Assembly (NCBI RefSeq): GCF_000968375.1
Contig: NZ_CP009933.1
Location: 1,770,577-1,794,576 of the forward strand
Length of the DNA: 24,000 nt
Direction of reading: 5' to 3'
From: Clostridium scatologenes
GTDB taxonomy: Bacteria > Bacillota > Clostridia > Clostridiales > Clostridiaceae
A program made the translations under genes and the position numbers. This document shows positions 1 through 23,019 of this stretch, one piece after another (within the stretch, counting starts at the first letter, position 1; each line of letters starts with the position of its first letter). Below the pieces are notes generated by a model. It saw nothing but the letters and a program-made list of their open reading frames with translations. It was not told where the DNA came from and made no database searches.

Positions 1-840
1 ATATATACCAAATTTCAATATAGCCATATGTTTTTCATTTACAAGATAAGATGGAAACCATGTCATAAAAAAGAATAGTATTGAGGCAATTGAAAATCCA
101 CCTATATACATGCCCCACAATTGTCTATTACTAAAAAGATACTTTAATTCTCTTAGGCTAATCTTTCTCTTCTCTTTTATAGTGTCGGAAAGTCCTCCCC
201 CATTTTTAATGAGATCAAGCTCTGCCTTATTAACACCTTTTGCAGAAGCAGGATCATGATAAAAAGCAATCCAACCTATAAAACATAGAACTCCAAGTAC
301 ACCAGTAGTAATAAAAATTGATCTCCATCCAAATGTTACTAAAAGCCAAGTAAGAATTGGAGTGCAAAGTGCAAGTCCTACATATTCCGAGCCAGTATAA
401 GCCCCAATTGCCAAACCACGTTCATGAGATGGAAACCAAGTAGTAACAATACGGTTATTTGCCGGAAAAGCTGGTGCTTCAAAAAAGCCAAGACCAATAC
501 GACAAGCTATCAAACTACTTACGCCAGAAGCAAATGCCATAACTCCTGTAACTAAGGACCAACCTAAAAGAGCAATTCCATATACTAATCTAGGTCCAAA
601 TGTGTCAAGAAACCACCCACATGGAATTTGCATACAAGTATATGCCCAACTCATAGCTGAGAATATCAATCCCATTACAGCAGGATTTAGTGCAAATTCC
701 TTTGATATTGCTGTTGACGCTACCGATAAATTCGCCCTATCAAGATAATTTACAAATGTTATTATGCACACTAATAACAATATAAACCATCTCTTGCCAG
801 TTGCTTTTCTTTCTTCTTTCTCCATAATTACTTCTCTCAT
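1..840 (-). CDS. MFS transporter, anion:cation symporter (ACS; DgoT/GudP/ExuT-like) family; N-terminal 280 aa, with the 3' end lying beyond the window start
   Basis: Not in the ORF track because it is truncated. My reverse-complement translation gives MREVIMEKEERKATGKRWFILLLVCIITFVNYLDRANLSVASTAISKEF...GLGFFEAPAFPANNRIVTTWFPSHERGLA...; the first ~40 and last ~40 codons were checked base by base with no stop, and the middle was translated once without rechecking. The NYLDRxNLSxA and GxxEAxxFP motifs are typical of the ACS family. SD sequence GGAGGGG lies 4-5 nt upstream of the ATG at 840. Confidence 0.85.
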   Translation of the reverse strand, partial: MREVIMEKEERKATGKRWFILLLVCIITFVNYLDRANLSVASTAISKEFALNPAVMGLIFSAMSWAYTCMQIPCGWFLDTFGPRLVYGIALLGWSLVTGVMAFASGVSSLIACRIGLGFFEAPAFPANNRIVTTWFPSHERGLAIGAYTGSEYVGLALCTPILTWLLVTFGWRSIFITTGVLGVLCFIGWIAFYHDPASAKGVNKAELDLIKNGGGLSDTIKEKRKISLRELKYLFSNRQLWGMYIGGFSIASILFFFMTWFPSYLVNEKHMAILKFGIY

Positions 841-1058
841 TTTTCCCCTCCTGTATAAATTTTCATAATTTGTGTTTTCAATAATTTAAAAGTTAACATG
901 AAATATGTAATAATATATTATTTTATGTACGTTTTTTGCTAATTTTTTTCAACATCTAAGCAAAATCTTTGTCATATGTATAATTGATTGGGTTAATTTT
1001 AACTTTCACAATTCAAAATTTAAAATTTTCAAAAAATTATTTTTCAAGAAATAGATGT

Positions 1059-1096
1059 AACTTAATTGCAAATATCATAATATCTGCAATTAAGTT
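1059..1096 (-). terminator. Stem-loop downstream of the 400-aa MFS gene (putative terminator)
   Basis: Perfect 12-bp inverted repeat AACTTAATTGCA (1059-1070) / TGCAATTAAGTT (1085-1096) with a 14-nt loop, about 40 nt past the stop at 1135. The U-tract on the minus strand is only moderate. Confidence 0.45.
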
Positions 1097-1134
1097 TTAT
1101 TTAATATGTTCTATTCTATTTTTCTAATATATTT

Positions 1135-2337
1135 TTATTGTTCTACTGCATGTTTTGCATATTGTCTATTTACATATAAAGCTAGTATTACACCAATAAT
1201 AGTAATTACTGCATTAAATAAAACTACATATTTTGGTCCATCTGTACCACCAGATCTTGTTATAGCACCAGCAGCATTTAAAATAACATAGTTTGCCACA
1301 CTAGATGAAATCATAACTATGGAAGTAATCTTACCTTTATTTGCTGGGAACATTGAGTTTGCTGTAGATACAGCTAACTGAAGCACTCCACCTGCTGCTG
1401 TAAATCCAATTACAAATCCACCTATTAAACAAATCGTTGGTGTCTGTACAAAGTATATGATCAAAAGCATTATTGTTGAAAGCAAAGGATAAAGAACTAG
1501 TACTTTAACTGGTTTAAGGAATTTCTTTACTAAAGCTGCTGTTAAAAGTACTGCTACCATTGATCCCATTGCATAATATGATTGAATTTGAGCTGGTTTA
1601 GCAAGCCCATATAATTTTCCTAATTCTTGATTACAGTTTAACCATAATTGGAATGTAGATGTACATGTAAAACCAATAAGAATAACTGCAATACTAGTTG
1701 GTGTAAATTTCATCTTTTCTTCCTTAGGTTTATCACTCTTAGCACTAGTATTCATTGGAGGGAAAGGCATAAATGCAATTAAGATACCATCTATAGCAAG
1801 TAAAATACCTGTCACAATGAAAATAGTTTTATAAGTCATGTGATTTGCTGAAACAATACCTATCATAAATGGAAGTAAAAATTGAGATATAGATATAGAG
1901 AATTTAGTAAACATGTTAGCAACATCACCAGAATTTACAAAGATCTCTAAACATGATGGAGTAACACATGTATCTAAAAATGAGTTAGCAGCACCACCAA
2001 TTAGTGCAAATATATAAGCAACATACATATTTGGTGCTAATATAAGTCCAAAGAAATAACATACATAAAGTACTATACCAATTAATCCTGAAACTCTTCT
2101 TCCAAACTTATCTGAAATAGGTCCTGAAAATGGATATCCAATAAGACGACCTAGTCCAAGTGCAGCGATAACAGCAAGTACTATACTTACATCAACACTA
2201 CCATTAGATAAGACATGTCCTCCCCAAGCAGTAGCAAAATCCTTTTTATATTGTCCTAAAATTGATACTCCAATACCATGTACAAAATAGGTGAAATATA
2301 ATGCTAAGGCCGTTGGATAATATTTTTTATTATTCAT
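1135..2337 (-). CDS. MFS transporter (12-TM type, 400 aa); candidate hydroaromatic acid permease by context
   Basis: Complete ORF, hydrophobic throughout. It carries the MFS loop motif GRLIGYPFSGPISDKFGRR. SD GAGAGGAG lies upstream of the ATG. It is the last gene of the module with the dehydrogenase and reductase. In E. coli the ydiB-aroD pair is likewise flanked by MFS genes (ydiM/ydiN). Confidence 0.9.
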   Translation of the reverse strand: MNNKKYYPTALALYFTYFVHGIGVSILGQYKKDFATAWGGHVLSNGSVDVSIVLAVIAALGLGRLIGYPFSGPISDKFGRRVSGLIGIVLYVCYFFGLILAPNMYVAYIFALIGGAANSFLDTCVTPSCLEIFVNSGDVANMFTKFSISISQFLLPFMIGIVSANHMTYKTIFIVTGILLAIDGILIAFMPFPPMNTSAKSDKPKEEKMKFTPTSIAVILIGFTCTSTFQLWLNCNQELGKLYGLAKPAQIQSYYAMGSMVAVLLTAALVKKFLKPVKVLVLYPLLSTIMLLIIYFVQTPTICLIGGFVIGFTAAGGVLQLAVSTANSMFPANKGKITSIVMISSSVANYVILNAAGAITRSGGTDGPKYVVLFNAVITIIGVILALYVNRQYAKHAVEQ

Positions 2338-2480
2338 TTTTTTCTCCTCTCATTCTTCATCTAAAAGTTTTATTAATTAAAATTATATTTTTATACATTA
2401 ATATTCCGTCTGCAATTTGTTATTAATTTATTAATTTTTATATACTTTTTTTGTTAATTTATTAACTTTTCTGTTTTAAT

Positions 2481-2512
2481 AATTAGGTTGGATTTAAAAA
2501 TCCAACCTAATT
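2481..2512 (-). terminator. Strong palindromic stem-loop between the dehydrogenase and MFS genes (intra-operon terminator, attenuator or RNA-processing site)
   Basis: AATTAGGTTGGATTT AA AAATCCAACCTAATT forms 15-bp perfect arms, 20 nt past the stop of the 2532-3401 gene. No clean U-tract follows on the minus strand. Confidence 0.5.
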
Positions 2513-2531
2513 GGATACTAAATGTTAGCCA

Positions 2532-3401
2532 TTACTTAAAGTATAATTCCTTAACTTCTTTTGCTGGCATTTCTAATCCAGTATATAACTTAAAGGCTTC
2601 TGCTCCTTGCCATAATAACATTCCTGTACCATCTACTGTCTTACATCCAGCAGCTTCAGCATCTTTTAAAAACTTTGTTTGTTTTGGATTATATACTGTA
2701 TCTGACACAACTAAATCTTTTCTAAAAACTGAATTATCTTTTATTGGAGATTCATCTTCATGAGGGTGCATTCCTACTTTTGTTGCATTTACTAAAATAT
2801 TAGAAGATGCAATTTTTTCTCTAAGTTTTTGTCTATCTTCTAAGTCATACAACTCTACAACACACTGTGGCACTTCTTGCTTTAATTTTTCAATAGTTTC
2901 TTCAGCTCTTTTATAGAAATCATCCTTTATATTAAATATGGAAATTTCCTTAGCTCCATCTAAAGCACATTGTACTTGAATAGCTGTTGCAGCACCACCT
3001 GCACCAATAATAGTTATATTTTTACCTTTTACCTCTACTCCATTTTCATTTAAGCTGCGCACAAATCCAACACCATCTGTAATATTTCCAGTTAATTTAC
3101 CATTGTTATTGACAATAGTATTTACTGCTCCTACTATACGAGCAGCTGGAGATAGCTCATCCATATATTTAACTACTTCACTCTTACATGGCATTGTGAC
3201 ATTTGACCCTTTAATATTCAAAGTCTTAATAGCTGCAATAGCATCAGGAACTTTTTCTAAAGAAATGTCAAAGGCTAAATATGCAGAATCTATTCCTGTT
3301 TTTTGAAAGCTGTAATTGTACATAGCAGGAGATCCTGAATGTCCTACTGGTGTACCTATTAAACTATATAAAGCTGTTGTTCCTGAAATTCTTTTTTCCA
3401 T
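2532..3401 (-). CDS. Quinate/shikimate 5-dehydrogenase, YdiB-class paralog (289 aa)
   Basis: SDH-family motifs are present: GHSGSPAMYN, GSNVTMPCK, GAVNT and the GAGGAATA glycine loop. The loop is followed by FNIKDDF; an acidic residue after the beta-strand suggests NAD preference, as in YdiB. It aligns without gaps to the 7597-8469 paralog. Confidence 0.9.
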   Translation of the reverse strand: MEKRISGTTALYSLIGTPVGHSGSPAMYNYSFQKTGIDSAYLAFDISLEKVPDAIAAIKTLNIKGSNVTMPCKSEVVKYMDELSPAARIVGAVNTIVNNNGKLTGNITDGVGFVRSLNENGVEVKGKNITIIGAGGAATAIQVQCALDGAKEISIFNIKDDFYKRAEETIEKLKQEVPQCVVELYDLEDRQKLREKIASSNILVNATKVGMHPHEDESPIKDNSVFRKDLVVSDTVYNPKQTKFLKDAEAAGCKTVDGTGMLLWQGAEAFKLYTGLEMPAKEVKELYFK

Positions 3402-3438
3402 AATGTAAGCCCCCTAAAATTGTTATATTGCTATATCA

Positions 3439-5373
3439 TTATATTTGTAATGCTGCATCTAGCGCTTCTTTTGTTGCATCTAATGCTCTACGTGCTCTTG
3501 TTGCATCTCCAATAACATAAGTTTCTTTTACAACTTTTTTAACTTCTTCACTTAATGGATCATAGTTACGTGATCCCATAGCAAGAACTACTGAATCAAA
3601 ACCATGAGCACTTTGTCCTACTCCATCTGCAAGTGTATAATCTACGCCGTCTTCAAAGAATTTTGCAACTTTTGCTCCTGTAATAGTTTTAATTTTATAT
3701 TCATCAAAATCTTTCATTAAATATTTGCGGTGTTCTGATATTACATCAGCTCCTACTTCATCACGAAGTTCTACAACAGTAACATCATGTCCAAGTTCTC
3801 CTAAGAAAGCAGCTGTTTCACATCCAACCATACCGCCTCCTACAACAAGAACTTTTTTTCCACAAACTTCTTTTCCATCAAGAAGATCAACTGCATGGAT
3901 CAATCCAGACTCATTGATTCCTGGTATAGGAAGTACAAGTGGTGTTGCTCCTGTAGCTAAAATTACTGCATCAGGTTTTTCTTGTGATATTATTTCAGGA
4001 GTTACCTTTGTATTCATATGGATTTCCACGCCATATTTGTTACATTTATTGATATAACTGCGTACCATATTTGTAATGTCGCCTTTTCCTGGAGGATAAG
4101 CTGCTAAACGCATTTGTCCACCAAGTGTATCAGTTGCTTCAAACAATATTACATCATGGCCTCTCTTAGCACATACCCATGCTGCAAGCATGCCACCAAC
4201 TCCGCCTCCAACAACTACTACTTTTTTACTAGTATCTGCTTGTTTTAACTCATCTTCTCTTCCAAGTAGTGGATTAACAAGACAAGTAATTGGATTTCCT
4301 TGATACATGTTGCAAACACATCCTTGTAAACAAGCAATACATGGAGTTAATTCATCCAAGCATCCAGCTGCAGCCTTATTAGGTGTTTCTGGATCAGCTA
4401 AGCTTTGACGTCCAAAGGCTACTAAATCACATCTTCCTTCACGAACTAATATTTCTGCATAATGTGGTTCTGTAAAACGTCCTACAACAATAACAGGAAT
4501 ATTTACTGCTCTTTTTATTTCTGTAACTAATTCAGCATTAAAGCCGCCATGTATAACTGTAGGTGCCCACATATATTCATCTTTAAGATGTACAGCACGT
4601 GAAACATGAAGTCCATCAATACCACACTCTTCTAAATAAGCAGCAATTACTGCACTATCGTGAACATCTAATCCACCTGCAACTTCATCACTAGAATTTA
4701 TACGGCATATAATAGCTATAGAATGTCCAACTTTTTTTCGAATATTTTCAATAACTAAACGAGGAAGTCTCATTCTATTTTCAAAGCATCCTCCAAATTC
4801 ATCTACACGTTTGTTTGTTCTTGGAGATAGGAAACTACTAATTAGATATCCATGTGCACAGTGTACTTCTACTGCATCAGCTCCAGCTTTCTTCGCACGT
4901 ACTGCTGCATCACCATATGCTTCAATTAATTCATAAATTTCTTCAGTAGTCATTGCTTCAGGTATATTACGACCTAATGCTGATGGTATTGCTGACGCAG
5001 ATTTTAATGGATATCCAGCAACTTTTGCATTACCTTCAGGTCCTGCATGTTGAAGCTGAATAGATATTTTAGCACCATTTTCATGACAAGCGTCAATGAC
5101 ACGTTTAAAGCTTTCTACTGTACTATCATCAAATAAGCAAGGTTTTCTAGGACCTCCCTTAGCTTCTTTATGCACAACTGTAGCTTCAAAAGTTATTAAT
5201 CCAAAACCACCTTGAGCACGTTTACTATAATAGGCCAATGATTTATCACTCATAGTTCCATCTGTATTTGCAAAATTGTTTCCCATAGGTGAAACAACAA
5301 AACGATTTGGAACTGTCATTGGACCAATTTTTATCGGAGCAAACATGGATTTAAACATCATAAAAAATCTCAT
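3439..5373 (-). CDS. 2-enoate reductase / 2,4-dienoyl-CoA reductase-like flavoprotein (OYE FMN domain + [4Fe-4S] + FAD/NAD(P)H domain, 644 aa)
   Basis: The N-terminal OYE TIM barrel shows PMGNN, HCAHGYLISSFLSP and RxNxRxDEFGG motifs. The Cys cluster is CIACLQGCVCN...C. Two Rossmann GxGxxG motifs are present (VVGGGVGGM and VVGGGMVGCE). The true start may be one of the internal Met codons at 5361/5358 (MMFKSMF...). Confidence 0.9.
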   Translation of the reverse strand: MRFFMMFKSMFAPIKIGPMTVPNRFVVSPMGNNFANTDGTMSDKSLAYYSKRAQGGFGLITFEATVVHKEAKGGPRKPCLFDDSTVESFKRVIDACHENGAKISIQLQHAGPEGNAKVAGYPLKSASAIPSALGRNIPEAMTTEEIYELIEAYGDAAVRAKKAGADAVEVHCAHGYLISSFLSPRTNKRVDEFGGCFENRMRLPRLVIENIRKKVGHSIAIICRINSSDEVAGGLDVHDSAVIAAYLEECGIDGLHVSRAVHLKDEYMWAPTVIHGGFNAELVTEIKRAVNIPVIVVGRFTEPHYAEILVREGRCDLVAFGRQSLADPETPNKAAAGCLDELTPCIACLQGCVCNMYQGNPITCLVNPLLGREDELKQADTSKKVVVVGGGVGGMLAAWVCAKRGHDVILFEATDTLGGQMRLAAYPPGKGDITNMVRSYINKCNKYGVEIHMNTKVTPEIISQEKPDAVILATGATPLVLPIPGINESGLIHAVDLLDGKEVCGKKVLVVGGGMVGCETAAFLGELGHDVTVVELRDEVGADVISEHRKYLMKDFDEYKIKTITGAKVAKFFEDGVDYTLADGVGQSAHGFDSVVLAMGSRNYDPLSEEVKKVVKETYVIGDATRARRALDATKEALDAALQI

Positions 5374-5414
5374 CCTTTCATTTTTTGAAATCCATTAAAA
5401 TTTATAATATATTA

Positions 5415-6269
5415 CTATTTTGCATTTGGAGAAACTTCTGGCCAAGCTTTATCTAATACTTTTATAGTATTGTCATATGTGTGCTTAGCTGCTTCAGCAA
5501 CACCTTTTTCTAAAATAGCATCACTTATTACTTCAACACCAATACATGCAGGTTTTATACCTTTTTCTTTAATCATTTGAACAAAACCTTCTGTCACATT
5601 AATTCCAGTGCCTGGTGCAAGTCTGTCATGCATTGATTCATCTCTTAATATAGATTTTGCATAAGGTCTTTCATAAACATCATTGATCTGGATGGATACA
5701 ATTTTATCAGCTGGTATACCTTCTAATAATTTAATATCATTTTCCTGATTTGCTCTTGCCCAATGCCATGTATCTAATATAAGTTTAGCATTGTCGCAGC
5801 CAGAAGCTTTAACTACTGCCCAACCTTTTTTAATATCTTGAACACCACTGTATGGCATAGGTTCTAAACCAATAACATACTTACCAGCTCTTTGACATAA
5901 TTCTTTTAACTTTTGTGCAGTATGTTCAACACTATAATCTTCCATTAATCCAATATTTATGTGGTTAACACCAAATAATTCACACATATGGAAACACATT
6001 TGTTCTTTATATTTTTCTTCATAAGAACGATTATCTTCAGCCCAAAGTGTAATATATTCAACTTCAGTAACCTTCATATCATATTTTTTAAGAATATCAA
6101 GTATATCAGCATCAAATAAACCTTCATTTAATGCATCTACATATGTTTCAGCACGAAGACCTATTCCTTCATAACCTGCTTCTTTTGCTGCTTTAACTCT
6201 TTCTTCAAATTTACATTGATCTCCTAATGTCCATGAACTAACTGTAATTGGTGGGCATTGATTTTTCAT
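5415..6269 (-). CDS. Xylose isomerase-like TIM-barrel (sugar phosphate isomerase/epimerase superfamily) protein; candidate 3-dehydroshikimate dehydratase or IolE-like ring dehydratase
   Basis: The ORF-track start at 6287 is a TTG without an SD. The ATG at 6269 (MKNQCPPITV...) has SD GAAAGGGG 7 nt upstream. The ILDTWHW and DRLAPGTG motifs are typical of this fold. The specific function is inferred only from the adjacent dehydroquinase and quinate dehydrogenase paralogs. Confidence 0.75.
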   Translation of the reverse strand: MKNQCPPITVSSWTLGDQCKFEERVKAAKEAGYEGIGLRAETYVDALNEGLFDADILDILKKYDMKVTEVEYITLWAEDNRSYEEKYKEQMCFHMCELFGVNHINIGLMEDYSVEHTAQKLKELCQRAGKYVIGLEPMPYSGVQDIKKGWAVVKASGCDNAKLILDTWHWARANQENDIKLLEGIPADKIVSIQINDVYERPYAKSILRDESMHDRLAPGTGINVTEGFVQMIKEKGIKPACIGVEVISDAILEKGVAEAAKHTYDNTIKVLDKAWPEVSPNAK

Positions 6270-6393
6270 GATATTATCCCCTTTCAAATGAAAAATTGTT
6301 ATTAATTTAGCTTAGTTTTTAATTTATGTATTGAAGTATTTAATAAATTAATCAAGTTAGTTTCTACCGGTAGTTTCCTATTAAAATAGGCCT

Positions 6394-6426
6394 AATTTCA
6401 ATTAAGTAATCGATTTAATTGAAATT
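6394..6426. promoter_or_regulatory. Perfect 12-bp inverted repeat in the divergent control region (candidate operator)
   Basis: AATTTCAATTAA-gtaatcgat-TTAATTGAAATT. The 12-mer ATTAAGTAATCG (6401-6412), which runs from the end of the left arm into the spacer, recurs at 9335-9346 in the second divergent region. Confidence 0.35.
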
Positions 6427-6464
6427 TATAAACTCATTATATTATATAAATTTTCATAAAACAA

Positions 6465-6516
6465 ATTGATAATTTCCTATCAATTCATAGATTTTATGTA
6501 TAGTTTATGTTATAAT
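6465..6516 (+). promoter_or_regulatory. Putative lysR-1 promoter with an overlapping LTTR-box-like palindrome
   Basis: Palindrome ATTGATA-N6-TATCAAT at 6465-6484. The -35-like TAGATT lies at 6488-6493, followed by a 17-nt spacer. The extended -10 TGTTATAAT has its TATAAT at 6511-6516. Confidence 0.4.
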
Positions 6517-6544
6517 TGTGCCAATAATATTTTGAAAGCGAGGC

Positions 6545-7435
6545 ATGAAATTGAATTTATATCATTTACGCTATTTCGTAACTCTAGCACACTTAGAACA
6601 TTACACAAGAGCTGCTGAGAAATTAATGATTACTCAGCCAAGCTTGAGCCATGCAATATCCTTATTAGAAAATGAACTAGGCATCTCTTTATTTGAAAAA
6701 GACGGTAGAAACATTGTACTTACCAAATATGGAAAAGTATTTTTAAATAATGTAGAAAAATCCTTAGAAATTCTTGATTCTAGTGTTAAAACTTTAAAAC
6801 TTATTGGCAGTGGTGAAGGTAAAATTCAGCTAGCCTTTCTTCGCACATTAGGAACGGATTTCGTACCAGATATTACTCGAAAATTTCTAGAAACTCATAG
6901 TGAAAAATCAATAGAATTTAATTTCAACACTATAGCAACTTCTGTTGATATTATCCAAGGTCTCAAGGAGAGAAAATACGACATTGCTTTCTGCTCGAAA
7001 ATCGGTAAAGAACAAGGTATAGAATTTATACCAGTTGCTAACCAAGAGCTAGTACTAATTGTTCCTACTGACCATCCACTTGCAGATAAAAATTCAATTG
7101 ATTTAATTGATACAATCCCGTACCCTCAAATTTTTTTTACAAGCAAAAGTGGACTTAGACCTATAGTTGATGATTTGTTTACACAAATCGGTAAAGAACC
7201 CAAAATTGTTTATGAAGTTGAAGAAGATCAAGTAATTGCTGGACTTGTTGCTAAAAATTTTGGCATTGCAGTTTGTCCTAACATGCCTATTTTGAATTCC
7301 ATGGATTTGAAAGTAATTAAAATTTCAAGTCCAAATTTTGAAAGACTATTTTATTTAGCAATGTTGAAAGATGCTTACCTTGCACCAGTTGTTCATGAAT
7401 TTAAAAATTTTGTTATAGAAAATACTGAAATATAA
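6545..7435 (+). CDS. LysR-family transcriptional regulator (paralog 1)
   Basis: N-terminal wHTH LRYFVTLAHLEHYTRAAEKLMITQPSLSHAISLLENELG plus a C-terminal substrate-binding domain. It is divergent from the 6269-1135 gene set. Confidence 0.95.
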   Translation: MKLNLYHLRYFVTLAHLEHYTRAAEKLMITQPSLSHAISLLENELGISLFEKDGRNIVLTKYGKVFLNNVEKSLEILDSSVKTLKLIGSGEGKIQLAFLRTLGTDFVPDITRKFLETHSEKSIEFNFNTIATSVDIIQGLKERKYDIAFCSKIGKEQGIEFIPVANQELVLIVPTDHPLADKNSIDLIDTIPYPQIFFTSKSGLRPIVDDLFTQIGKEPKIVYEVEEDQVIAGLVAKNFGIAVCPNMPILNSMDLKVIKISSPNFERLFYLAMLKDAYLAPVVHEFKNFVIENTEI

Positions 7436-7471
7436 AGTTTAGTTGTATTATATGTATACAAAATCTTATTT

Positions 7472-7525
7472 CAGAGGACAATTGACAAAGATCATCCTTC
7501 ATTGTCATCTGTCAATTGTCCTCTG
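7472..7525. terminator. Large GC-richer hairpin between convergent genes (putative bidirectional terminator or palindromic element)
   Basis: Perfect 16-bp arms CAGAGGACAATTGACA (7472-7487) / TGTCAATTGTCCTCTG (7510-7525) with a 22-nt loop. There is no clean U-tract on either side. CCTCTG is duplicated directly after the 3' arm. Confidence 0.5.
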
Positions 7526-7596
7526 TCCTCTGAAAAAGTTGTGTCGCATTATCCTCATATTAAATCTAAGTTTTGTATATATCAAAATTGAATTAA

Positions 7597-8469
7597 TTAA
7601 TATTTAATGTTTAATACTTTTTTCATGTGTTCTATAGGCATTTCTTTTCCAGTCCATAGTTTGAAAGCTGCTGCTCCTTGGAATAACATCATTCCAAAAC
7701 CATTCATTGTTTTACAGCCTACTTCTTTTGCCATTTTTAACAATGCTGTTTCTGCAGGTGCATAAACTGTGTCTGTTACAATTAAATCTGGTCTTAAGAA
7801 GCTTGGATCTGGAATATAAGTTTGACCTTCTAAAGGTTTCATTCCAACACCAGTTGCATTAGCAAATAAATAGCTATCTGCAATTTCCTCTTTTAATTTT
7901 GCAAGATCATCTAAATCATATAAAGTTGCTTTACAGTTAGTTTTTTCATTAATATCTTTTACTGTTTTCTTTCCTCTTTCGAAGAATTCATCCTTACGGT
8001 TAAATATTGATATTTCTTTCACTCCATCTAAAGCTGCTTGTATTTCTATTGCTGTAGCTGCTCCACCTGCTCCTGCTATTGTTATTTTCTTACCAATAAC
8101 ATCAATTCCAGCATCTTTTAATGATTGCATATAACCAATACCATCTGTGATGTGTCCAGTTAAAACACCATTATCATTTACAATTGTATTAACTGCACCG
8201 CAAAGTTCTGCTGCTTCTGATAACTTGTCAAGATACTTATGTACCACTGTTTTATTTGGCATTGATACATTTGATCCACGAACTTTCATTGCTCTGAAGC
8301 CTTTTATGGTATCCTCTAATTGTTCATTACCTACTTCAAATGCAAGATAAGCATAATCCAAACCTAATTTTGCAAATGCTTCGTTGTGCATTGCTGGTGA
8401 ACTTGAATGTCTAATTGGGTATGCTATTAATCCTATAAGTTCTGTGTGCCCTGTAATTCTTTCTGCCAT
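7597..8469 (-). CDS. ydiB: Quinate/shikimate dehydrogenase, YdiB-like (290 aa)
   Basis: From memory it is closely similar to E. coli YdiB over its full length (YPIRHSxSPxMxN, GSNVSMPNK, GAVNTIVND, GAGGAATA, FNRKDEFF, GMKPLE, GCKTxxGxGM). It lies immediately downstream of aroD. SD AGGAG is present. Confidence 0.92.
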   Translation of the reverse strand: MAERITGHTELIGLIAYPIRHSSSPAMHNEAFAKLGLDYAYLAFEVGNEQLEDTIKGFRAMKVRGSNVSMPNKTVVHKYLDKLSEAAELCGAVNTIVNDNGVLTGHITDGIGYMQSLKDAGIDVIGKKITIAGAGGAATAIEIQAALDGVKEISIFNRKDEFFERGKKTVKDINEKTNCKATLYDLDDLAKLKEEIADSYLFANATGVGMKPLEGQTYIPDPSFLRPDLIVTDTVYAPAETALLKMAKEVGCKTMNGFGMMLFQGAAAFKLWTGKEMPIEHMKKVLNIKY

Positions 8470-8526
8470 AATAATCGTCTCCTTTATATTTAATTTATAT
8501 TTTTATATAGTTTTTTATTATAATAA

Positions 8527-9294
8527 CTATTTATTAGCACTAATAAGTGAAAGTATTTTGTATAATTCATTTGCTTCTAATTGTCCTGGAGCTGATGCAA
8601 CCTTTGCTGATCCAAAAGTAAGCGCTGATCCAAAAGTTTCACCTGCTAAACGACTTATAACTCCTAGTGGTCCCATAGACATAGTTATAATCGGTGTTTT
8701 ATCATGATCACGTGTCATTTCATTTGTAGCTGTCAATAATTCAATTACATCTGTGCTACTTAAAGGCATTACTGCTATCTTAGGTACATCTGCTCCTAAT
8801 TCTTGCATTTTGCACAATCTTGCTATTATTTCATTTTTGCTAGGTGTTTTATCAAAATCATGATTAGACATAACTACTTTTACATCATGTTCATGTGCCA
8901 CTTTTACAATTTTCTTTACGGCTTCTTCATCACCAATAAATAACTCCACATCAATCATATCTGCATTGCCTGTTGCTGATATTGCCTTTTGTAATTCTAT
9001 ATAATATTCTAATGTAATTTCCTTTGCTCCACCTTCTTTAGCACTCCTAAAAGTAACTAACAAAGGTGTATCTCCTAATGCTTTTCTAACTTCAGCTAAA
9101 ATTTCTTTTACTTTTTCAATTTTATATACGTCTTCGTAAAAATCTATTCTCCATTCTGCAACATCCAATTTAATTTCTTTTAAATAAGAAACATCCTTCA
9201 TAATTTCTTCATTGCTGCATCCCATGAATGGCACTGCTATTTTGGGAATTCCCTGACCTAATTTCATATTTCTTACTTGAACTATACTTTTCAT
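8527..9294 (-). CDS. aroD: 3-dehydroquinate dehydratase, type I
   Basis: 255 aa, the typical type I length and layout. Family motifs AEWRIDFY, LVTFRSAKEGG, SNHDF and KIAVMP (Schiff-base Lys region) are present. Confidence 0.95.
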   Translation of the reverse strand: MKSIVQVRNMKLGQGIPKIAVPFMGCSNEEIMKDVSYLKEIKLDVAEWRIDFYEDVYKIEKVKEILAEVRKALGDTPLLVTFRSAKEGGAKEITLEYYIELQKAISATGNADMIDVELFIGDEEAVKKIVKVAHEHDVKVVMSNHDFDKTPSKNEIIARLCKMQELGADVPKIAVMPLSSTDVIELLTATNEMTRDHDKTPIITMSMGPLGVISRLAGETFGSALTFGSAKVASAPGQLEANELYKILSLISANK

Positions 9295-9329
9295 TTTTTA
9301 CTTCCTTTCTTAACTTTTTAAATTATTGA

Positions 9330-9355
9330 TTAAGATTAAGTAATCGTTATCTTAA
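9330..9355. promoter_or_regulatory. Inverted repeat centred on TAAGTAATCG upstream of aroD (candidate operator)
   Basis: TTAAGAT-taagtaatcgtt-ATCTTAA. It shares the 12-mer ATTAAGTAATCG with 6401-6412, in the same orientation. Confidence 0.3.
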
Positions 9356-9538
9356 AGAATTAAAAAAATTATTACTTATAAATTTTAACAGATAATACTG
9401 TACAAAACACTACATAATAAAAGCTTTTCTACTATAATTGTATATTATATAACAGTTTAGTTATTTTTTTAACATATCTTGACTTTATTATACTGCAATA
9501 CATTTGATAATTCTAATACATATTTTTATGATTATTAA

Positions 9539-9567
9539 TAGTTTTTATCTATCAATTATGATATACT
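9539..9567 (+). promoter_or_regulatory. Putative lysR-2 promoter
   Basis: TAGTTT (9539-9544), a 17-nt spacer, then extended -10 TGATATACT (TATACT at 9562-9567). The spacer contains the palindrome TATCA-ATTA-TGATA. The layout aligns with the other two lysR promoters. Confidence 0.4.
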
Positions 9568-9597
9568 ATGTATTATTCTATTTAGGAGGACTACTCT

Positions 9598-10494
9598 ATG
9601 AACTTAAGCCAATTATACTATTTCAGAAAAATTGCTCAATTAGAGCACTTCAGACAAGCAGCTTTAGAATTAAATGTATCTCAACCTAGTTTAAGTAAAT
9701 CAATGCTAAATTTAGAATCAGAACTGGGTATTTGCTTATTTGATAAAGAAGGAAGAAATGTTCATCTAACTAAGTATGGCAAAATTTTTTTACAATATGT
9801 AGAAAATATTTTAAACGAATTAGAAAATGCCAAAAATAAGATGAATCAATTAGCAAGCAGTGAACATGGTCATGTTGATATAGCATATATTTCGCCATTA
9901 GCACAATATTATATACCTGATACAGTGCGTAGTTTTTTAAATATAGAACAAAATAAAAATGTTACTTTCACATTTAAACAAGGTTTTTCTTACGAAATGA
10001 TAGAGGAACTTAAAAATGATAAATATGATTTAATTTTTTGTTCTCACATAGAAAATGAACCTGATATTATGTTTGTTCCAATTATTAAAAAGGATTTATT
10101 TGTTATTGTTCCTTTTGATCATCCGCTTTCAAAATTTGAAAGCATTGATTTGAAAGATATTGAACCATATCCTTTAGTAGCATATGATAAAACTTCTGCT
10201 ATGGGAAAAACTACTTTAAAATTATTGAAAAGTATTAATTTGAATCCAAAAATTATTTGTGAAGCTGCTGATGAATATGCTATTTCTTCACTAGTTGCTG
10301 CAAACTTTGGAGTAGCTATTATAGCTGAAGCGCCTGCTCTTGCACATGCTAAAGTAAAAAAAATAAACATCAACAGCCCAAAATATTCTCAAATAATATA
10401 TCTTGCATATAAAAAAAATAAGTATTTTCCTTCTGCTGTTATTAATTTTATTTCATATATAAAAGAAAAAAGTTCTGTAAGTGAATCACTATAA
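9598..10494 (+). CDS. LysR-family transcriptional regulator (paralog 2)
   Basis: wHTH LYYFRKIAQLEHFRQAALELNVSQPSLSKSMLNLESELG. SD AGGAGG lies 9 nt upstream. It is divergent from aroD-ydiB. Confidence 0.95.
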   Translation: MNLSQLYYFRKIAQLEHFRQAALELNVSQPSLSKSMLNLESELGICLFDKEGRNVHLTKYGKIFLQYVENILNELENAKNKMNQLASSEHGHVDIAYISPLAQYYIPDTVRSFLNIEQNKNVTFTFKQGFSYEMIEELKNDKYDLIFCSHIENEPDIMFVPIIKKDLFVIVPFDHPLSKFESIDLKDIEPYPLVAYDKTSAMGKTTLKLLKSINLNPKIICEAADEYAISSLVAANFGVAIIAEAPALAHAKVKKININSPKYSQIIYLAYKKNKYFPSAVINFISYIKEKSSVSESL

Positions 10495-10499
10495 AAATA

Positions 10500-10534
10500 G
10501 CCGATTAAGGTAAAATCAAATCACCTTAATCGGC
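10500..10534. terminator. Bidirectional intrinsic terminator between lysR-2 and the second enoate reductase
   Basis: 12-bp perfect stem GCCGATTAAGGT / ACCTTAATCGGC with an 11-nt loop. T-runs follow on both strands (ACTATTTTT on plus, CTATTTTTA on minus). Confidence 0.75.
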
Positions 10535-10558
10535 ACTATTTTTACTTAATTTAAATTA

Positions 10559-12565
10559 TTACTTAAATGCACCCATAACCTCTAAAGTTTTAACTACATT
10601 TCTCCCCTCTTCAACACCAGATATTATTCTTCTTGCTCTTACACTATCACCAATGTTAAGAAGTTTTACATTATTTTCTGAAGCATACTCTTCAACCATA
10701 GGGAATTCAGCATTTTCTGATCTCATTCCTAGGCATACAAAACCATAGTCGAAGTTTATATCTACAGCAGCTCCTTCAGGATTTTTCACTGTAAACGAAC
10801 TATCATTAACAGTCTGAAGTGCAGTATTTGCAAGCTGTTTAACATTATTTACTTTCATCATATGATATACATCAAGCTTTGTATTAGTATCTAAATCTTT
10901 TCCTATTACTGGCATCATTTCAATGACATCAACATCTGCTCCTCTTTCAGCAAAGAATTCTACAACATCAAGTCCTACTGCTCCTCCGCCTACTACTACA
11001 ACCTTTTTATCTTTACAGTCTTTATCAAACTCTTTGATATTATTAATAAATCCAAATGTTGATTTGACATTTGATCCAGCTTTATCTACACGATCCAACA
11101 ATCCTGCTATTGGAGGAAGTAATGGTTTTGATCCTGTTGCATTTATTATAAGGTCTGGATTTAATTCATCTAGTACTTCCTTTGAAGCTTTTGTATTAAG
11201 TTTTATTTTAAGGTTAGGAAGTTCCTTTACTCTATTTTGTAAATATTCTACAAAATAATGAATTCTTGCTTTTGCTGGAATTGTTCCGATCATCCAAGCT
11301 AAACCGCCTAATCTATCCTTTTGTTCTAATAGTGTCACATTACAACCTACTTCTGCAGCAGTACAGGCAGCTTCCAGTCCTGCTGTACCTCCACCAATAA
11401 CTACAACGTTAACAGATTTCTTTACTTGTTTTTCTTTATAAGCATCTTCAAATAAAAGATCTGGATTTATACTACAACGAATTGGTTGTGATTTTGCTAA
11501 ACGATGATCAGCACATCCTATATTACAAGATATACATCTTCTAAGAAGGTGCTCCTGTCCATCCGCAACCTTATTAGCCCAATATGGTTCTGCAATTAAA
11601 CCACGACCCATAGCTAGAAGATCTGCATCTCCTTTAGCAATAATTTCTTCAGCAACTTTTGGGGAACGAATGTTTCCTGAAGTTATTACTGGTTTATTGA
11701 ATTTTTCTTTAAAAGCTTTAGCCATATAGCTTCTCCAGCCTTCTGCTAAACTCATTTTATCATGTTGAAGATATAAAGTATCATTTTGTGCTATAGAAAT
11801 ATTTAGGAAATCTACTTTTTCCTGCATATATCCCATCAATTCTAAAGAATCTTCAAGAGTATTACCTCCCTCAATCATATCATCCGCACTAATTCTTATA
11901 GAAATTGGAAACCTAGGACCAACTGCAGCTCTCACACTATCTATAACCATTACAGCAAATCTTGCTCTATTTTCAGCACTTCCACCAAATTCATCAGTTC
12001 TATCATTAAATAAAGGTGATAAGAATTGATTAAGTAAATATGAATGACCTGCATGAATTTCAACTGAATCAAATCCTGCTAATTGAGCTCTTGCAGCAGC
12101 TTCTCCATATTTTTTTGCAATATCTTTCATTTCCTCTACAGTTAAAGGTCTTGGAATTGCTCCACCTGTCTTTGAAGGAATATTAGAAGCAGAAACTGCT
12201 TGTACTCCATCTAATCTTGCAGCATAAGCAGATGCTCCAGCATGGTTAAGCTGAATTGAAACTTTAGCTCCATAAGCATGAAGTCTTTCCACTAATGTAT
12301 AAAGTCCAGGTACATATTGGTTATCATCAATTCTGCACTGCTTTGTTCCGTTAGTTCCCATTGGAAAATCAATACAAGCATTTTCAACTATGATAAGTCC
12401 TGTACCACCTTTTGCTCTTAATTCATAATATTTAATCATCTCTTCAGATACTTCTGCACTAACAGTAGCAAAATTACTACCTATTGGTGGCATAACAGTC
12501 CTATTTCTAAGAGTCATTCCATTTATAGTAATTGGTGACAAAAGATTTGGATATTTGCTTTTCAT
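10559..12565 (-). CDS. 2-enoate reductase / 2,4-dienoyl-CoA reductase-like flavoprotein, second paralog (668 aa)
   Basis: OYE-domain motifs PPIGSN, HAGHSYLLNQFLSP and NDRTDEFGG are present. The [4Fe-4S] motif is CISCNIGC-x11-C. Two GxGxxG motifs are present (VIGGGTAGLE and VVGGGAVGLD). SD GGAGG is present. Confidence 0.9.
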   Translation of the reverse strand: MKSKYPNLLSPITINGMTLRNRTVMPPIGSNFATVSAEVSEEMIKYYELRAKGGTGLIIVENACIDFPMGTNGTKQCRIDDNQYVPGLYTLVERLHAYGAKVSIQLNHAGASAYAARLDGVQAVSASNIPSKTGGAIPRPLTVEEMKDIAKKYGEAAARAQLAGFDSVEIHAGHSYLLNQFLSPLFNDRTDEFGGSAENRARFAVMVIDSVRAAVGPRFPISIRISADDMIEGGNTLEDSLELMGYMQEKVDFLNISIAQNDTLYLQHDKMSLAEGWRSYMAKAFKEKFNKPVITSGNIRSPKVAEEIIAKGDADLLAMGRGLIAEPYWANKVADGQEHLLRRCISCNIGCADHRLAKSQPIRCSINPDLLFEDAYKEKQVKKSVNVVVIGGGTAGLEAACTAAEVGCNVTLLEQKDRLGGLAWMIGTIPAKARIHYFVEYLQNRVKELPNLKIKLNTKASKEVLDELNPDLIINATGSKPLLPPIAGLLDRVDKAGSNVKSTFGFINNIKEFDKDCKDKKVVVVGGGAVGLDVVEFFAERGADVDVIEMMPVIGKDLDTNTKLDVYHMMKVNNVKQLANTALQTVNDSSFTVKNPEGAAVDINFDYGFVCLGMRSENAEFPMVEEYASENNVKLLNIGDSVRARRIISGVEEGRNVVKTLEVMGAFK

Positions 12566-12814
12566 TTTTCTTCCTCCATTTTATACCTATTTTATCTTTA
12601 TATAGTAGAATTTAGAAACAACATGGAAAGTGTTTTCTTAACATATTGCATTTATATCGTGTTTGTATCAAGAATTGGATTTTCACTACATTAAATACTT
12701 TTTTATCAATACAACTAAACTTAAATGAATGTGTTTGTTAATTAACATTTATCTCGTGATTCATTATAGCAAAACCGTTATCATAAATCTAATTCATATT
12801 TTCCTTTAAAGCTA

Positions 12815-12844
12815 TAGAATTTATTTATATATTCTATTATAATG
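12815..12844 (+). promoter_or_regulatory. Putative lysR-3 promoter with an embedded inverted repeat
   Basis: TAGAAT (12816-12821), a 17-nt spacer, then TATAAT (12839-12844). The inverted repeat ATAGAAT-N10-ATTCTAT (12815-12838) spans the -35 element and the spacer. Confidence 0.4.
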
Positions 12845-12912
12845 AGTACTATAAACGATTAAAATTTCTAAAAAAAGTAGTAAAATAACAATATAGAAAG
12901 AGGTGAATTTAA

Positions 12913-13824
12913 ATGAATTTGAAACAGCTTCAATACTTTCGTATTTTAGCACAAACTGAGCATTACACAAAAGCAGCTGAAAAATTATACATAACACAAC
13001 CTAGTTTAAGTTACAGTATTTCAGAATTAGAGAGGGAATTTGGTACTCAATTATTTGAAAAGGAAGGTAGAAATGTAAAACTGACAAAATACGGACGCTT
13101 TTTTCTTTCTTATGTAGAAAAAGCCCTTGATGAATTGGATTTGGGTAAAAATCTATTGTTAAAAATGGTAAGCCCTACGGAAGGAAAGGTTGACCTAGCT
13201 TTTATTTACACTTTAGGTTCCAAATTTGTACCTAACATAGTTCAAAGCTTTTTAAATGAAACTAGTTATAAAAATGTAGAATTTTCTTTTGCTCAAGGAA
13301 ACACTCAATATTTAATTAATAACCTTAAAGAAGGAAAATTTGACCTGGTTTTTTGCTCTTTTGTTGAAAATGAACCAAATATTGATTTTATTCCTATAGC
13401 ACAAGAAGAATTAGTTATAATTGTACCTAAAGATCATCCTCTTTCTAATTACAAAAGTATAAGTTTAAATGAAACTTCACCTTACCCTTTTGTTTTCTTT
13501 AGCAACGAAAGTGGTTTGCGCCCACTTATAGACAAAATGTTTAAAGATTCAAATATAGTACCTAAAATTGCATGTGAGGCTGAAGAGGATACTGCTATAG
13601 CTGGCTTTGTGGCTATCAATTATGGAATAGCAATTATTCCTAATATACCATCTTTAAAAAATTTTGATGTAAAAATACTTAAAATCAAACAACCAAATTA
13701 TAAAAGATTTATTTATGCAGCTACCGTTAAAAATCGTTATAACACTCTTGCTACAGATTCTTTTCGTTCATTTGCAATTAAATATGGTAAAAAAAATTAT
13801 TTAGACACAAATAAGTACATATAA
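12913..13824 (+). CDS. LysR-family transcriptional regulator (paralog 3)
   Basis: wHTH LQYFRILAQTEHYTKAAEKLYITQPSLSYSISELEREFG. SD AAGAGGTG is present. It is divergent from the 10559-12565 reductase. Confidence 0.95.
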   Translation: MNLKQLQYFRILAQTEHYTKAAEKLYITQPSLSYSISELEREFGTQLFEKEGRNVKLTKYGRFFLSYVEKALDELDLGKNLLLKMVSPTEGKVDLAFIYTLGSKFVPNIVQSFLNETSYKNVEFSFAQGNTQYLINNLKEGKFDLVFCSFVENEPNIDFIPIAQEELVIIVPKDHPLSNYKSISLNETSPYPFVFFSNESGLRPLIDKMFKDSNIVPKIACEAEEDTAIAGFVAINYGIAIIPNIPSLKNFDVKILKIKQPNYKRFIYAATVKNRYNTLATDSFRSFAIKYGKKNYLDTNKYI

Positions 13825-14121: not shown

Positions 14122-14616
14122 TTATTTTGCTAATTCTAGTATTTTTTCAATTACATCTTCAATTTTACCATTATTCTCAATTCGAAAATCTGAATATTTT
14201 TTATAAAGTTCATATCTTTCATCTAAAAGTTCATATAATTTTCCTACTCCATCTTTCAAAAGAGGTCTACTTAATACATTTATGTCTTTTGCAATATTTT
14301 CTACAGGTCTATCTATAAAAATTACAATTCCATTTTTCTTAAGGTTTTCTATATTTGAAAAATTTTTGATCACTCCACCACCAGTGGATATTATAGCTGA
14401 TTTTTTTGCACTTACTTCACAAACAGCTTCTTTTTCTAGTTTTCTAAAATAATCTTCTCCATTTTTGAATATATCTGGTATAGTTTTTCCTTCTCTATCT
14501 TCTATATAATTATCCATATCAATGAAATCTGTTCTCAATTTTTCATATAAAATTTTTCCTATTGTTGTTTTTCCGCTGCCTGGCATTCCTATTAATACTA
14601 TATTTTTACTCATCAT
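14122..14616 (-). CDS. aroK: Shikimate kinase
   Basis: Walker A motif GMPGSGKTT and family motifs DxD and STGGG are present. I prefer the ATG at 14616 (MMSKNIVLIG; SD AAGGTG 8 nt upstream) over the ORF-track ATG at 14634, which has no SD. Confidence 0.93.
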   Translation of the reverse strand: MMSKNIVLIGMPGSGKTTIGKILYEKLRTDFIDMDNYIEDREGKTIPDIFKNGEDYFRKLEKEAVCEVSAKKSAIISTGGGVIKNFSNIENLKKNGIVIFIDRPVENIAKDINVLSRPLLKDGVGKLYELLDERYELYKKYSDFRIENNGKIEDVIEKILELAK

Positions 14617-14643
14617 ATTTATAACACCTTTCATTTCAAAAAT

Positions 14644-15459: not shown

Positions 15460-15465
15460 TTATAT

Positions 15466-16590: not shown

Positions 16591-16604
16591 GTTTATCACT
16601 TTCC

Positions 16605-18936: not shown

Positions 18937-18955
18937 AAAATTTAGCCCCCTATTT

Positions 18956-20017: not shown

Positions 20018-20020
20018 AAT

Positions 20021-20893: not shown

Positions 20894-20896
20894 ATT

Positions 20897-22909: not shown

Positions 22910-22949
22910 AAGACTTTGCAAATTAAATGCAAAGTCTTATTTTTTTTTT
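22910..22949 (+). terminator. Intrinsic terminator
   Basis: AAGACTTTGCA-aattaaa-TGCAAAGTCTT followed by a T10 run (22940-22949). Confidence 0.85.
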
Positions 22950-23019
22950 AAAAGTTGTAACTATTTTTTACTTTCTTAATACTATATATAGTGAAGATAG
23001 ATTTTACGGAGGTATGTAC

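Follow-up and report, generated by a model that had tools for sequence, protein, structure and literature searches.

Quinate and shikimate are processed in Listeria by the qui operons, which are induced by shikimate via the regulator QuiR and work via 3-dehydroshikimate (DHS) (bioRxiv 10.1101/2025.04.08.647683). Both QuiR and QuiR2 respond to shikimate and protocatechuate, and the qui operons are in part still marked 'uncharacterized' (Christendat laboratory). The dehydroshikimate dehydratase activity of QuiC2 has been demonstrated, and Listeria supplied with shikimate accumulate protocatechuate (bioRxiv 10.1101/2025.04.08.647683). The system has been described as protocatechuate-making, and its two OYE/[4Fe-4S]/FAD reductases of ∼640–670 aa are uncharacterized. 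Here, we analyzed a 24,000-nt stretch of the Clostridium scatologenes genome (contig NZ_CP009933.1, ∼30% G+C; hereafter the window) with an island of corresponding genes. On the minus strand, these are an MFS permease fragment, a second MFS permease, the dehydrogenase SDH1, the reductase OYE1, a TIM-barrel protein (TIM), the dehydrogenase SDH2, the dehydroquinase AroD and the reductase OYE2; three LysR genes lie on the plus strand. Genes were called from an open reading frame (ORF) listing together with Pfam and NCBIfam scans of the window, and Rfam and tRNA scans of the same sequence found nothing.

Several other routes for hydroaromatic acids have been described. Lactic acid bacteria (lactobacilli) were reportedly found by Carr in 1957 to reduce quinate to dihydroshikimate, and Whiting and Coggins are said to have named 3,4-dihydroxycyclohexanecarboxylate as an end product of Lactobacillus plantarum. 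Classical quinate catabolism (QuiA/YdiB, AroD/QuiB and QuiC1/QsuB/AsbF, followed by the β-ketoadipate pathway) has the same first three chemical steps as those we propose for the island, and the same dehydratase fold. However, the dehydratase of the island falls outside those sequence families, ring-cleavage genes are lacking, and two Fe-S ene-reductases are present in addition. Gut microbes are proposed to convert quinate by an oxidative route to protocatechuate and a reductive route to hexahydrobenzoate, with enzymes that are mostly unknown (PMC11602726, 2024 Nature Microbiology). In Eggerthella lenta and Sutterella wadsworthensis, a shikimate-induced flavin reductase, cited as 'shikimate reductase', has been linked to the conversion of shikimate to hydroshikimate (Little et al., bioRxiv 10.1101/2022.12.26.521950).

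Correspondence to the Listeria qui operons

Gene for gene, the island matches qui2 and probably also qui1, and we are highly confident that it is a qui-type regulon for hydroaromatic acids, in line with the quinate/shikimate island proposed in the original prediction. Positions 1–7435 are collinear with qui2 (lmo2233 quiR2, divergent from lmo2234 quiC2-lmo2235-lmo2236-lmo2237-lmo2238), with five genes in the same order and orientation (identities in Table 1). On the Listeria contig in our set (L087), lmo2233 (LysR) is divergent from lmo2234 (TIM), a 636-aa OYE reductase, an SDH gene and two MFS genes. The 41-nt operator of the window is also found in the divergent promoter of this contig and in that of C. 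difficile (L088). The arrangement differs from qui2 in that its second permease belongs to the ACS family and is unrelated to Lmo2238, that the host is a strictly anaerobic Clostridium of the acetogen group, and that the operon is fused with a qui1-type module and lies beside the aro operon.

The same three enzymes as in qui1 (quiR lmo0488, divergent from lmo0489-lmo0490-lmo0491), together with a QuiR-type LysR, are encoded at 7597–13824, and OYE2 matches lmo0489 (664 aa) in size and family; this synteny draws on published annotations and on the presumed identity of the structure 3tnl. In contrast to qui1, the genes do not form a single unit. OYE2 stands as a monocistronic gene with a terminator-like hairpin of its own and is parted from AroD–SDH2 by LysR2, a third regulator that the AroD–SDH2 unit has gained, and there is no transporter inside the module. 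We consider OYE2 a separate transcription unit because a terminator-like hairpin (10500–10534) lies behind it.

The locus is a further copy of the regulon described in Listeria, with two reductases that are common to both and unexplained. The original prediction had missed that the non-reductase genes constitute a described system (QuiR, QuiR2, QuiC2, YdiB and AroD). Its account of the gene content held up well: all the genes it listed are present at the positions given, and the profile searches it had called for returned the domains it had named. These comprise two MFS permeases, one of the ACS family (TIGR00893), a xylose-isomerase-fold protein matching AP_endonuc_2, two ∼650-aa reductases (644 and 668 aa) with FMN, [4Fe-4S] and FAD domains and motifs, and a type I dehydroquinase with full-length matches to TIGR01093 and DHquinase_I (260 bits, positions 1–230 of 230). 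AroD is the only dehydroquinase in the window. The extra dehydrogenases do lie beside the biosynthetic aro operon.

As had been noted from the sequence, the three LysR regulators are paralogous (39–51% mutual identity) and each is divergent from one transcription unit. The best solved relative of all three is QuiR (5ted), which LysR3 matches most strongly, the other two scoring 172 and 167 bits. A long box, AAAACAAATTgaTaaT-N8-AATtCATAGATTTT, is recognizable in 33 of 43 intergenic regions between divergent LysR and TIM genes, including those of Listeria and C. difficile; in the window, the corresponding operator AAAACAAATTGATAAT-N8-AATTCATAGATTTT overlaps a promoter-like site (6466–6493). We derived a position weight matrix (PWM) from the 33 orthologous promoter sites and scanned the 24 kb on both strands. 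The three top-scoring sites were found in exactly the three LysR-divergent regions, with a maximum of 5.2 in 20 shuffled sequences. The PWM replaced a hand-built motif, TCWAATWCATAKWTTT, whose two matches (0.19 expected) were equalled in 3 of 100 shuffles. Since one operator type marks all three divergent promoters, the three units look like one regulon with cross-talking regulators. Such cross-talk between QuiR and QuiR2 has been shown in Listeria (bioRxiv 10.1101/2025.04.08.647683).

Both dehydrogenases had been placed in the YdiB class and credited with an acidic segment, which is only partly borne out. The segments (ISIFNIKDDF in SDH1 and ISIFNRKDEF in SDH2) do align with YdiB, FNIKDD and FNRKDE lying opposite FNRKDDFF of the Salmonella and E. 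coli enzymes, and the acidic residue after the dinucleotide loop predicts a preference for NAD. However, both proteins narrowly miss the strict YdiB equivalog NF009390 (cut-off 349; SDH2 343.3 and SDH1 303.7 bits), and we therefore label them 'YdiB-like, NAD-type'. In NCBIfam they fall within NF009200 (529 bits, cut-off 432) and NF001313 (545 bits, cut-off 431). Their best solved relatives are YdiB and 3tnl, the latter presumably Lmo0490. The aroE gene of the aro operon itself (14644–15459) is of the TIGR00507 type, and its product is 32–35% identical to SDH1 and SDH2.

TIM is a predicted QuiC2-type dehydratase, matching the structure of Lmo2234 (2g0w) with E = 3.7e-95 and, by Foldseek with a predicted structure, a TM-score of 0.90. 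The nearest solved relative beyond its own family is IolI (profile E = 1.8e-9, TM 0.78). After its own orthologue, the closest folds are IolI, QuiC1, AsbF and IolE, all of which act on hydroxylated carbocycles by abstracting a proton beside the ring ketone. IolE and IolI of myo-inositol catabolism have the same fold, but they are only 12–18% identical to TIM, no iol genes lie nearby, and the proposed substrate of TIM has a carboxylate. Membership in the AsbF and QuiC1 families was rejected on sequence, the fold alone being in common (TM 0.70–0.78 to 5hmq and 3dx5). TIM scores 23.5 bits against the curated QuiC model NF042435 (cut-off 1200), and the profile search from TIM reached 5hmq at only E = 9.6e-5 and did not detect AsbF. 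The main text of the Rex-regulon paper makes no mention of lmo2234. Residues ∼206–269 of TIM also match designer pentatricopeptide-repeat proteins (6een; phmmer E = 1.6e-10, profile E = 3.6e-13), which is probably a compositional effect.

Table 1. Features of the C. scatologenes window, in order of position
Feature	Position	Strand	Evidence and remarks
ACS-family MFS permease, 5′ part (280 aa)	1–840	−	MFS_1; TIGR00893 D-galactonate-transporter subfamily, 251 bits (fragment)
Terminator-like hairpin, 17-bp stem	1059–1096	−	3′ of MFS gene, end of qui2-like operon
MFS permease	1135–2337	−	Lmo2237 orthologue, 68.5% identity
SDH1, NAD-type YdiB-like quinate/shikimate-family dehydrogenase	2532–3401	−	Lmo2236 orthologue (69%); Shikimate_dh_N + SDH_C
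OYE1, FMN/[4Fe-4S]/FAD ene-reductase-type flavoenzyme, 644 aa	3439–5373	−	Orthologue of uncharacterized Lmo2235 (77.5%)
TIM, QuiC2-type xylose-isomerase-fold dehydratase (predicted)	5415–6287	−	AP_endonuc_2; Lmo2234 orthologue (56%; PDB 2g0w)
Conserved LysR operator (predicted)	6458–6498	+	Between LysR1 and TIM; PWM 51.6
LysR1	6545–7435	+	Lmo2233/QuiR2 orthologue, 62.5%
SDH2, NAD-type YdiB-like dehydrogenase	7597–8469	−	70% identical to PDB 3tnl; Shikimate_dh_N + SDH_C
AroD, type I 3-dehydroquinate dehydratase	8527–9294	−	TIGR01093, 234.8 bits (cut-off 139.3)
Operator-like site	9509–9549	+	AroD–LysR2 intergenic; PWM 10.9, third-best in window
LysR2, QuiR-family paralogue	9598–10494	+	Type beside AroD-first operons; 56% to C. 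botulinum-group regulator
Terminator-like hairpin, strong, 14-bp stem, 6 GC pairs	10500–10534	−	3′ of OYE2
OYE2, FMN/[4Fe-4S]/FAD ene-reductase-type flavoenzyme, 668 aa	10559–12565	−	Type of OYE-SDH-transporter-AroD operons
Operator-like site	12785–12825	+	OYE2–LysR3 intergenic; PWM 19.9, second-best in window
LysR3, nearest of the three to QuiR	12913–13824	+	Lmo0488 effector domain PDB 5ted, 251 bits
Biosynthetic aro operon: aroK, aroE, pheA, aroC, aroA, aroB, tyrA, DAHP synthase	14122–21910	−	

Linkage and modular structure of the cassette

The island is not a chance assembly, as its gene sets are found again in over 80 species. We collected 80 loci, one genome per species, with a QuiC2-type protein at 73–100% identity, mapped the window proteins onto them and counted linkage in the 70 loci that extend at least 4.5 kb downstream of the TIM gene. 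A reductase was encoded within 10 kb of the dehydratase in all 70. It was part of the TIM gene string itself in 67, as was an SDH gene in 68 and both together in 65, and in the remaining three loci, of the Anaerotignum type (L018, L022 and L035), reductases of both types lay upstream, no more than 10 kb away. Both TIM-OYE-SDH and TIM-SDH-OYE orders occur, so that rearrangement has not broken the linkage. The co-occurrence in other anaerobes that the original prediction had proposed to look for is present.

Carriers include C. carboxidivorans, C. ljungdahlii, C. ragsdalei, C. magnum and C. puniceum within Clostridium, as well as Anaerobutyricum hallii, Blautia, Dorea, Extibacter, Ruminococcus, Megasphaera elsdenii, Anaerotignum, Holdemanella and a Fusobacterium. 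The cassette is also found in C. beijerinckii, C. difficile and abundant human-gut metagenome contigs. De novo clustering of the ORFs from all 80 loci revealed MFS, TRAP and SulP-like transporters and shikimate kinase as conserved extras, and no conserved CoA ligase or transferase, decarboxylase or ring-cleavage enzyme around the cassette. This agrees with the earlier observation that ring-cleavage genes are absent: among the 80 species, no genes for the use of protocatechuate are conserved nearby. In a side observation, the TIM-type dehydratase was 73–95% identical across several Bacillota classes and a Fusobacterium (L038, L046, L051, L055 and L067), and also turned up on short contigs from Prevotella, Succinivibrio and Eggerthellaceae bins; this wide spread is due to horizontal transfer or else to mis-binning.

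For a second, independent sample, we took the SDH2-type dehydrogenase as the anchor and obtained six loci. Five of them contained an operon in which LysR is divergent from OYE-SDH-transporter-AroD, or a permutation of it, in Paenibacillus durus, Erwinia sorbitola, Carnobacterium gallinarum, Amedibacterium intestinale and the C. botulinum group. No TIM gene was found within 6–7 kb of these five loci, and in all five genera the stand-alone unit consists only of a transporter, a quinate/shikimate dehydrogenase, a dehydroquinase and an OYE2-type reductase (56–59% identical to OYE2, 32–34% to OYE1). An intact form with LysR divergent from OYE-SDH-AroD was also present in 13 of the TIM-anchored loci, as in the five of six SDH2-anchored ones. 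The island is therefore built from two separable modules: A (LysR1, divergent from TIM-OYE1-SDH1-MFS) and B (LysR, divergent from OYE2-SDH2-(transporter)-AroD), the latter being split in the window by the terminator (10534–10500) and the extra regulator LysR2.

Two variants were seen among these loci. In Enterococcus (L089, 8001–16852), LysR is divergent from TIM-SDH-MFS without the usual reductase, and downstream lie two ORFs without a Pfam match, a hydantoinase-A-like gene, an SDR gene and a gene for a 971-aa reductase with Oxidored_FMN, FMN_bind and FAD_binding_2 domains. In Erwinia sorbitola (L092, 3282–8888), OYE-SDH-MFS-AroD comes after a ydiL-like gene. In E. coli, the ydiL-ydiM-ydiN-ydiB-aroD cluster looks like this Erwinia unit minus the reductase.

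A candidate reductive half and competing explanations

OYE1 and OYE2 each combine Oxidored_FMN and Pyr_redox_2 domains, are 33% identical to each other and belong to distinct orthogroups. Judged by an alignment of 96 homologues, their ene-reductase machinery is intact: the His-x-x-His-x-Tyr motif (H171/H174/Y176), four cysteines (345, 348, 352 and 364) and the two GxGxxG motifs of the dinucleotide folds are invariant. In such enzymes, the His/His/Tyr triad binds the carbonyl and protonates the alpha carbon. Full-length structural matches were 6qkg and 1ps9. The same three-domain architecture and cofactor motifs are found in BaiCD/BaiH, BilR, FadH and 2-naphthoyl-CoA reductase. BaiCD and BaiH are bile-acid 3-oxo-Δ4 reductases, and BaiCD, which reduces the C=C bond of a cyclohexenone beside a 3-oxo group, offers the closest chemical analogy to DHS reduction. 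However, OYE1 and OYE2 differ from these reductases in genomic context and score below all equivalog cut-offs. Three assignments were rejected on this basis: BaiCD (553.7 and 471.2 bits; cut-off 825), BilR (485.7 and 369.8 bits; cut-off 750) and mycofactocin OYE_2 (492 and 426 bits; cut-off 793), the two scores in each case being those of the two reductases.

The 'shikimate reductase' of Little et al. is presumably a member of the FAD_binding_2/fumarate-reductase-like family. OYE1 and OYE2 do not belong there: FAD_binding_2 matches only a ∼40-residue Rossmann start (34–35 bits) within their Oxidored_FMN and Pyr_redox_2 architecture. Both kinds of enzyme would do the same kind of job, the reduction of a ring double bond for anaerobic electron acceptance. 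They differ in that the enzyme of Little et al. is a respiratory-like flavin reductase, reported to act on shikimate itself and described without linked dehydrogenase or dehydratase genes, whereas OYE1 and OYE2 are predicted cytoplasmic OYE/[4Fe-4S]/FAD proteins. Its existence nonetheless partly overtakes the statement in the original prediction that no genes had been assigned to such conversions, since a flavin reductase of another family has been linked to the step from shikimate to hydroshikimate. In full-text searches of the literature, we found no function assigned to lmo2235, lmo0489 or their homologues, nor a 'dehydroshikimate reductase' of the OYE/[4Fe-4S]/FAD family. Reduction of protocatechuate by OYE1 and OYE2, suggested by a top PDB match to 2-naphthoyl-CoA reductase, was considered and rejected, as there are no CoA-activating genes and Listeria accumulates protocatechuate.

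What could the reductases then reduce? Module B alone can produce only one enone, DHS. The activated alkenes that it could make or import are limited to shikimate, an enoate, and DHS, which is an enone as well as an enoate; DHS is the candidate substrate of OYE2. A reductive role is likewise suggested for OYE1, as it always accompanies TIM and a purely aromatic product would leave it nothing to reduce. We infer that both reductases belong to the pathway; the linkage in 70 of 70 and five of six loci strengthens this tie and survives changes in gene order.

By orthology and context, the permeases would import quinate or shikimate, the NAD-type SDH1 and SDH2 would interconvert these with 3-dehydroquinate and DHS, and AroD would dehydrate dehydroquinate to DHS. 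The QuiC2-type TIM enzyme would strip the 5-hydroxyl via proton abstraction next to the ring ketone, and the QuiR-type regulators would turn the units on in response to shikimate-pathway metabolites. OYE1 and OYE2 may form the reductive half of this pathway. In module B (SDH2, AroD and OYE2), quinate would be oxidized and dehydrated to DHS, whose C1=C2 bond OYE2 would hydrogenate, and SDH2 could reduce the ketone to give dihydroshikimate. In module A (SDH1, TIM and OYE1), this product would be re-oxidized and its 5-hydroxyl eliminated, which on a saturated ring would yield a non-aromatic 2-hydroxy-enone/dione. The elimination would be the same chemistry as that of inosose dehydratase: IolE removes a β-hydroxyl from a saturated hydroxy-cyclohexanone (inosose) to give a 1,2-dione. 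OYE1 and SDH1 would then reduce the enone/dione to 3,4-dihydroxycyclohexanecarboxylate. Net uptake would be two NADH equivalents per quinate or shikimate, so that fermenters or acetogens could use the hydroaromatic acid as an electron sink. Protocatechuate would arise wherever the dehydratase acts on DHS that has not been reduced, as in air or in vitro; elimination on unreduced DHS aromatizes, which would explain the protocatechuate seen with Listeria in vitro and in culture.

For the island as a whole, we lean slightly towards this explanation, a Clostridium copy of the qui regulon with a reductive half. That the OYE reductases hydrogenate DHS-derived enones appears to us an evenly balanced proposition, and the exact two-round order, module B and then module A, is doubtful. 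The reductive, non-aromatizing route of the original prediction accordingly keeps its plausibility through the linkage of the reductases, at the level of what we infer. Cyclohexanecarboxylate itself is an unlikely end product, however, as none of the genes in the set could remove the two vicinal hydroxyls that remain. Dihydroshikimate or 3,4-dihydroxycyclohexanecarboxylate would be the end products instead.

Several points speak against a reductive half. Module A occurs without module B within 10 kb in many loci, so that a strict two-round order is not required, and sequence does not distinguish whether TIM prefers DHS or its dihydro form. The action of an OYE on a 2-hydroxy-enone is plausible, but we know of no citable precedent. 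The protein encoded by lmo0489 (664 aa) is listed as an 'NADH oxidase' and as a homologue of OYE, with a reaction that 'remains to be elucidated' (2023 paper). The sole experimental read-out of an orthologous system is the accumulation of protocatechuate in Listeria (bioRxiv 10.1101/2025.04.08.647683).

This last observation is at the heart of another explanation, in which the island encodes a Listeria-style protocatechuate pathway whose product is exported, and the reductases are accessory, serving redox balancing or the detoxification of quinones and enones. The gene-for-gene orthology to qui1 and qui2, the demonstrated activity of QuiC2 and the 'NADH oxidase' annotation of lmo0489 all fit such a system. 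Yet an accessory role leaves unexplained why the reductases are linked in 70 of 70 loci, why they form two conserved orthogroups and why no other protein of the operon is as well conserved between Clostridium and Listeria as OYE1. Moreover, module B retains OYE2 in five genera without any dehydroshikimate dehydratase, and most of the carrier species are strictly anaerobic, with no genes for using protocatechuate conserved near the cassette. We consider this explanation unlikely.

The position of the island beside aro genes, here and in C. beijerinckii, raises the question of biosynthesis. None of the eight genes of the aro operon encodes a dehydroquinase according to NCBIfam, so AroD probably doubles as the biosynthetic enzyme and serves aromatic amino-acid synthesis as well; under LysR control, it may be the cell's only dehydroquinase. 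The original prediction had listed AroD among the genes of the catabolic route. The E. coli ydiB-aroD arrangement resembles the setting of AroD and the dehydrogenases here. A shikimate kinase gene (plain SKI or a chorismate-mutase–SKI fusion) lies in or beside the cassette in ∼41 of the 80 loci (e.g. L024 ∼9454, L033 8122–8907 and L048 7498–8028), so that chorismate may also be formed by salvage of shikimate taken up from outside. One could go further and view the whole island in terms of salvage and redundancy, with a housekeeping AroD, YdiB-like enzymes and permeases feeding quinate and shikimate to chorismate as proposed for E. coli ydiB-aroD, and TIM and the reductases as passengers. A dehydratase and two 650-aa Fe-S flavoenzymes would be needless for this purpose, although they are the most consistently linked genes, and three dedicated LysR regulators with a common operator argue for an inducible catabolic unit. 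As the main function, salvage thus seems very improbable to us; it is probably a side benefit.

A further explanation starts from the enzyme family of OYE1 and OYE2, which includes clostridial enoate and cinnamate reductases. The island could serve the splitting of chlorogenate, the reductases acting as aromatic 2-enoate (cinnamate or caffeate) reductases on the hydroxycinnamate half, and the dehydrogenases, AroD and TIM on the quinate half. In C. drakei, a feruloyl-type esterase gene lies directly to the left of the region corresponding to the window, and cinnamates are well-known electron acceptors of gut anaerobes (bioRxiv 10.1101/2022.12.26.521950). However, the esterase is present in only five of the 80 loci, the Listeria operons answer to shikimate and protocatechuate rather than to cinnamates, the usual neighbor of the cassette is shikimate kinase and not a phenolic-acid gene, and module B stands alone without an esterase. 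There is, in our view, little chance that this is what the reductases are for, and reduction of the quinate-derived ring remains our preferred reading.

Neighboring genes and wider significance

The window DNA is 97.5% identical to that of Clostridium drakei SL1 over 16.3 kb and 92–95% identical to that of C. carboxidivorans P7. The ACS permease continues past the window edge, and its full gene in C. drakei encodes 434 aa (L007, 15448–16752). To the left of the window start, at 16998–20664 of the same C. drakei contig, the permease that is truncated in the window is followed by another ACS-like MFS permease, by a BD-FAE feruloyl-type esterase of 318 aa (PF20434, 209 bits) and by a YdiB-like dehydrogenase, the third of its kind, which shares 90% identity with SDH2. 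These genes may tie the island to chlorogenate-type esters. At the other end of the window, a 259-aa ORF (22927–23706, plus strand) encodes a protein rich in Cys, Trp, Gly, His and Tyr with internal repeats, among them SPWFGGG units, the block DIDMDQSRHHHHRRDCCCMPFFPW in two copies and, as its tail, YPYYPKYPY, and the DNA of this region contains tandem arrays (23135–23243, 23374–23424 and 23611–23682). It has no match in Pfam or NCBIfam and may be a spore-coat-like structural protein.

Should the reductases prove accessory, the island would be one more copy of a described regulon. Tentatively, and with some doubt, we suggest instead that the qui1/qui2-type cassette is the long-sought cytoplasmic pathway for the reduction of quinate and shikimate. 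OYE2 would be a DHS ene-reductase, QuiC2 would dehydrate 3-dehydro-dihydroshikimate in the manner of IolE, and OYE1 would reduce the resulting enone, in hosts comprising Clostridium, C. difficile, Listeria, gut Lachnospiraceae, Oscillospiraceae, Megasphaera and Erysipelotrichaceae. If so, protocatechuate formation in Listeria would be an aerobic overflow, which suggests why these bacteria 'paradoxically' make a compound they cannot use. Quinate and shikimate abound in coffee, fruit and forage, and such hydroaromatic acids of the diet would then be a widespread fermentative electron sink and an entry to the cyclohexanecarboxylate/hippurate pool. The analysis ties a precise and widespread gene set to anaerobic quinate and shikimate reduction, for which its two conserved, unstudied reductases are the prime candidates.

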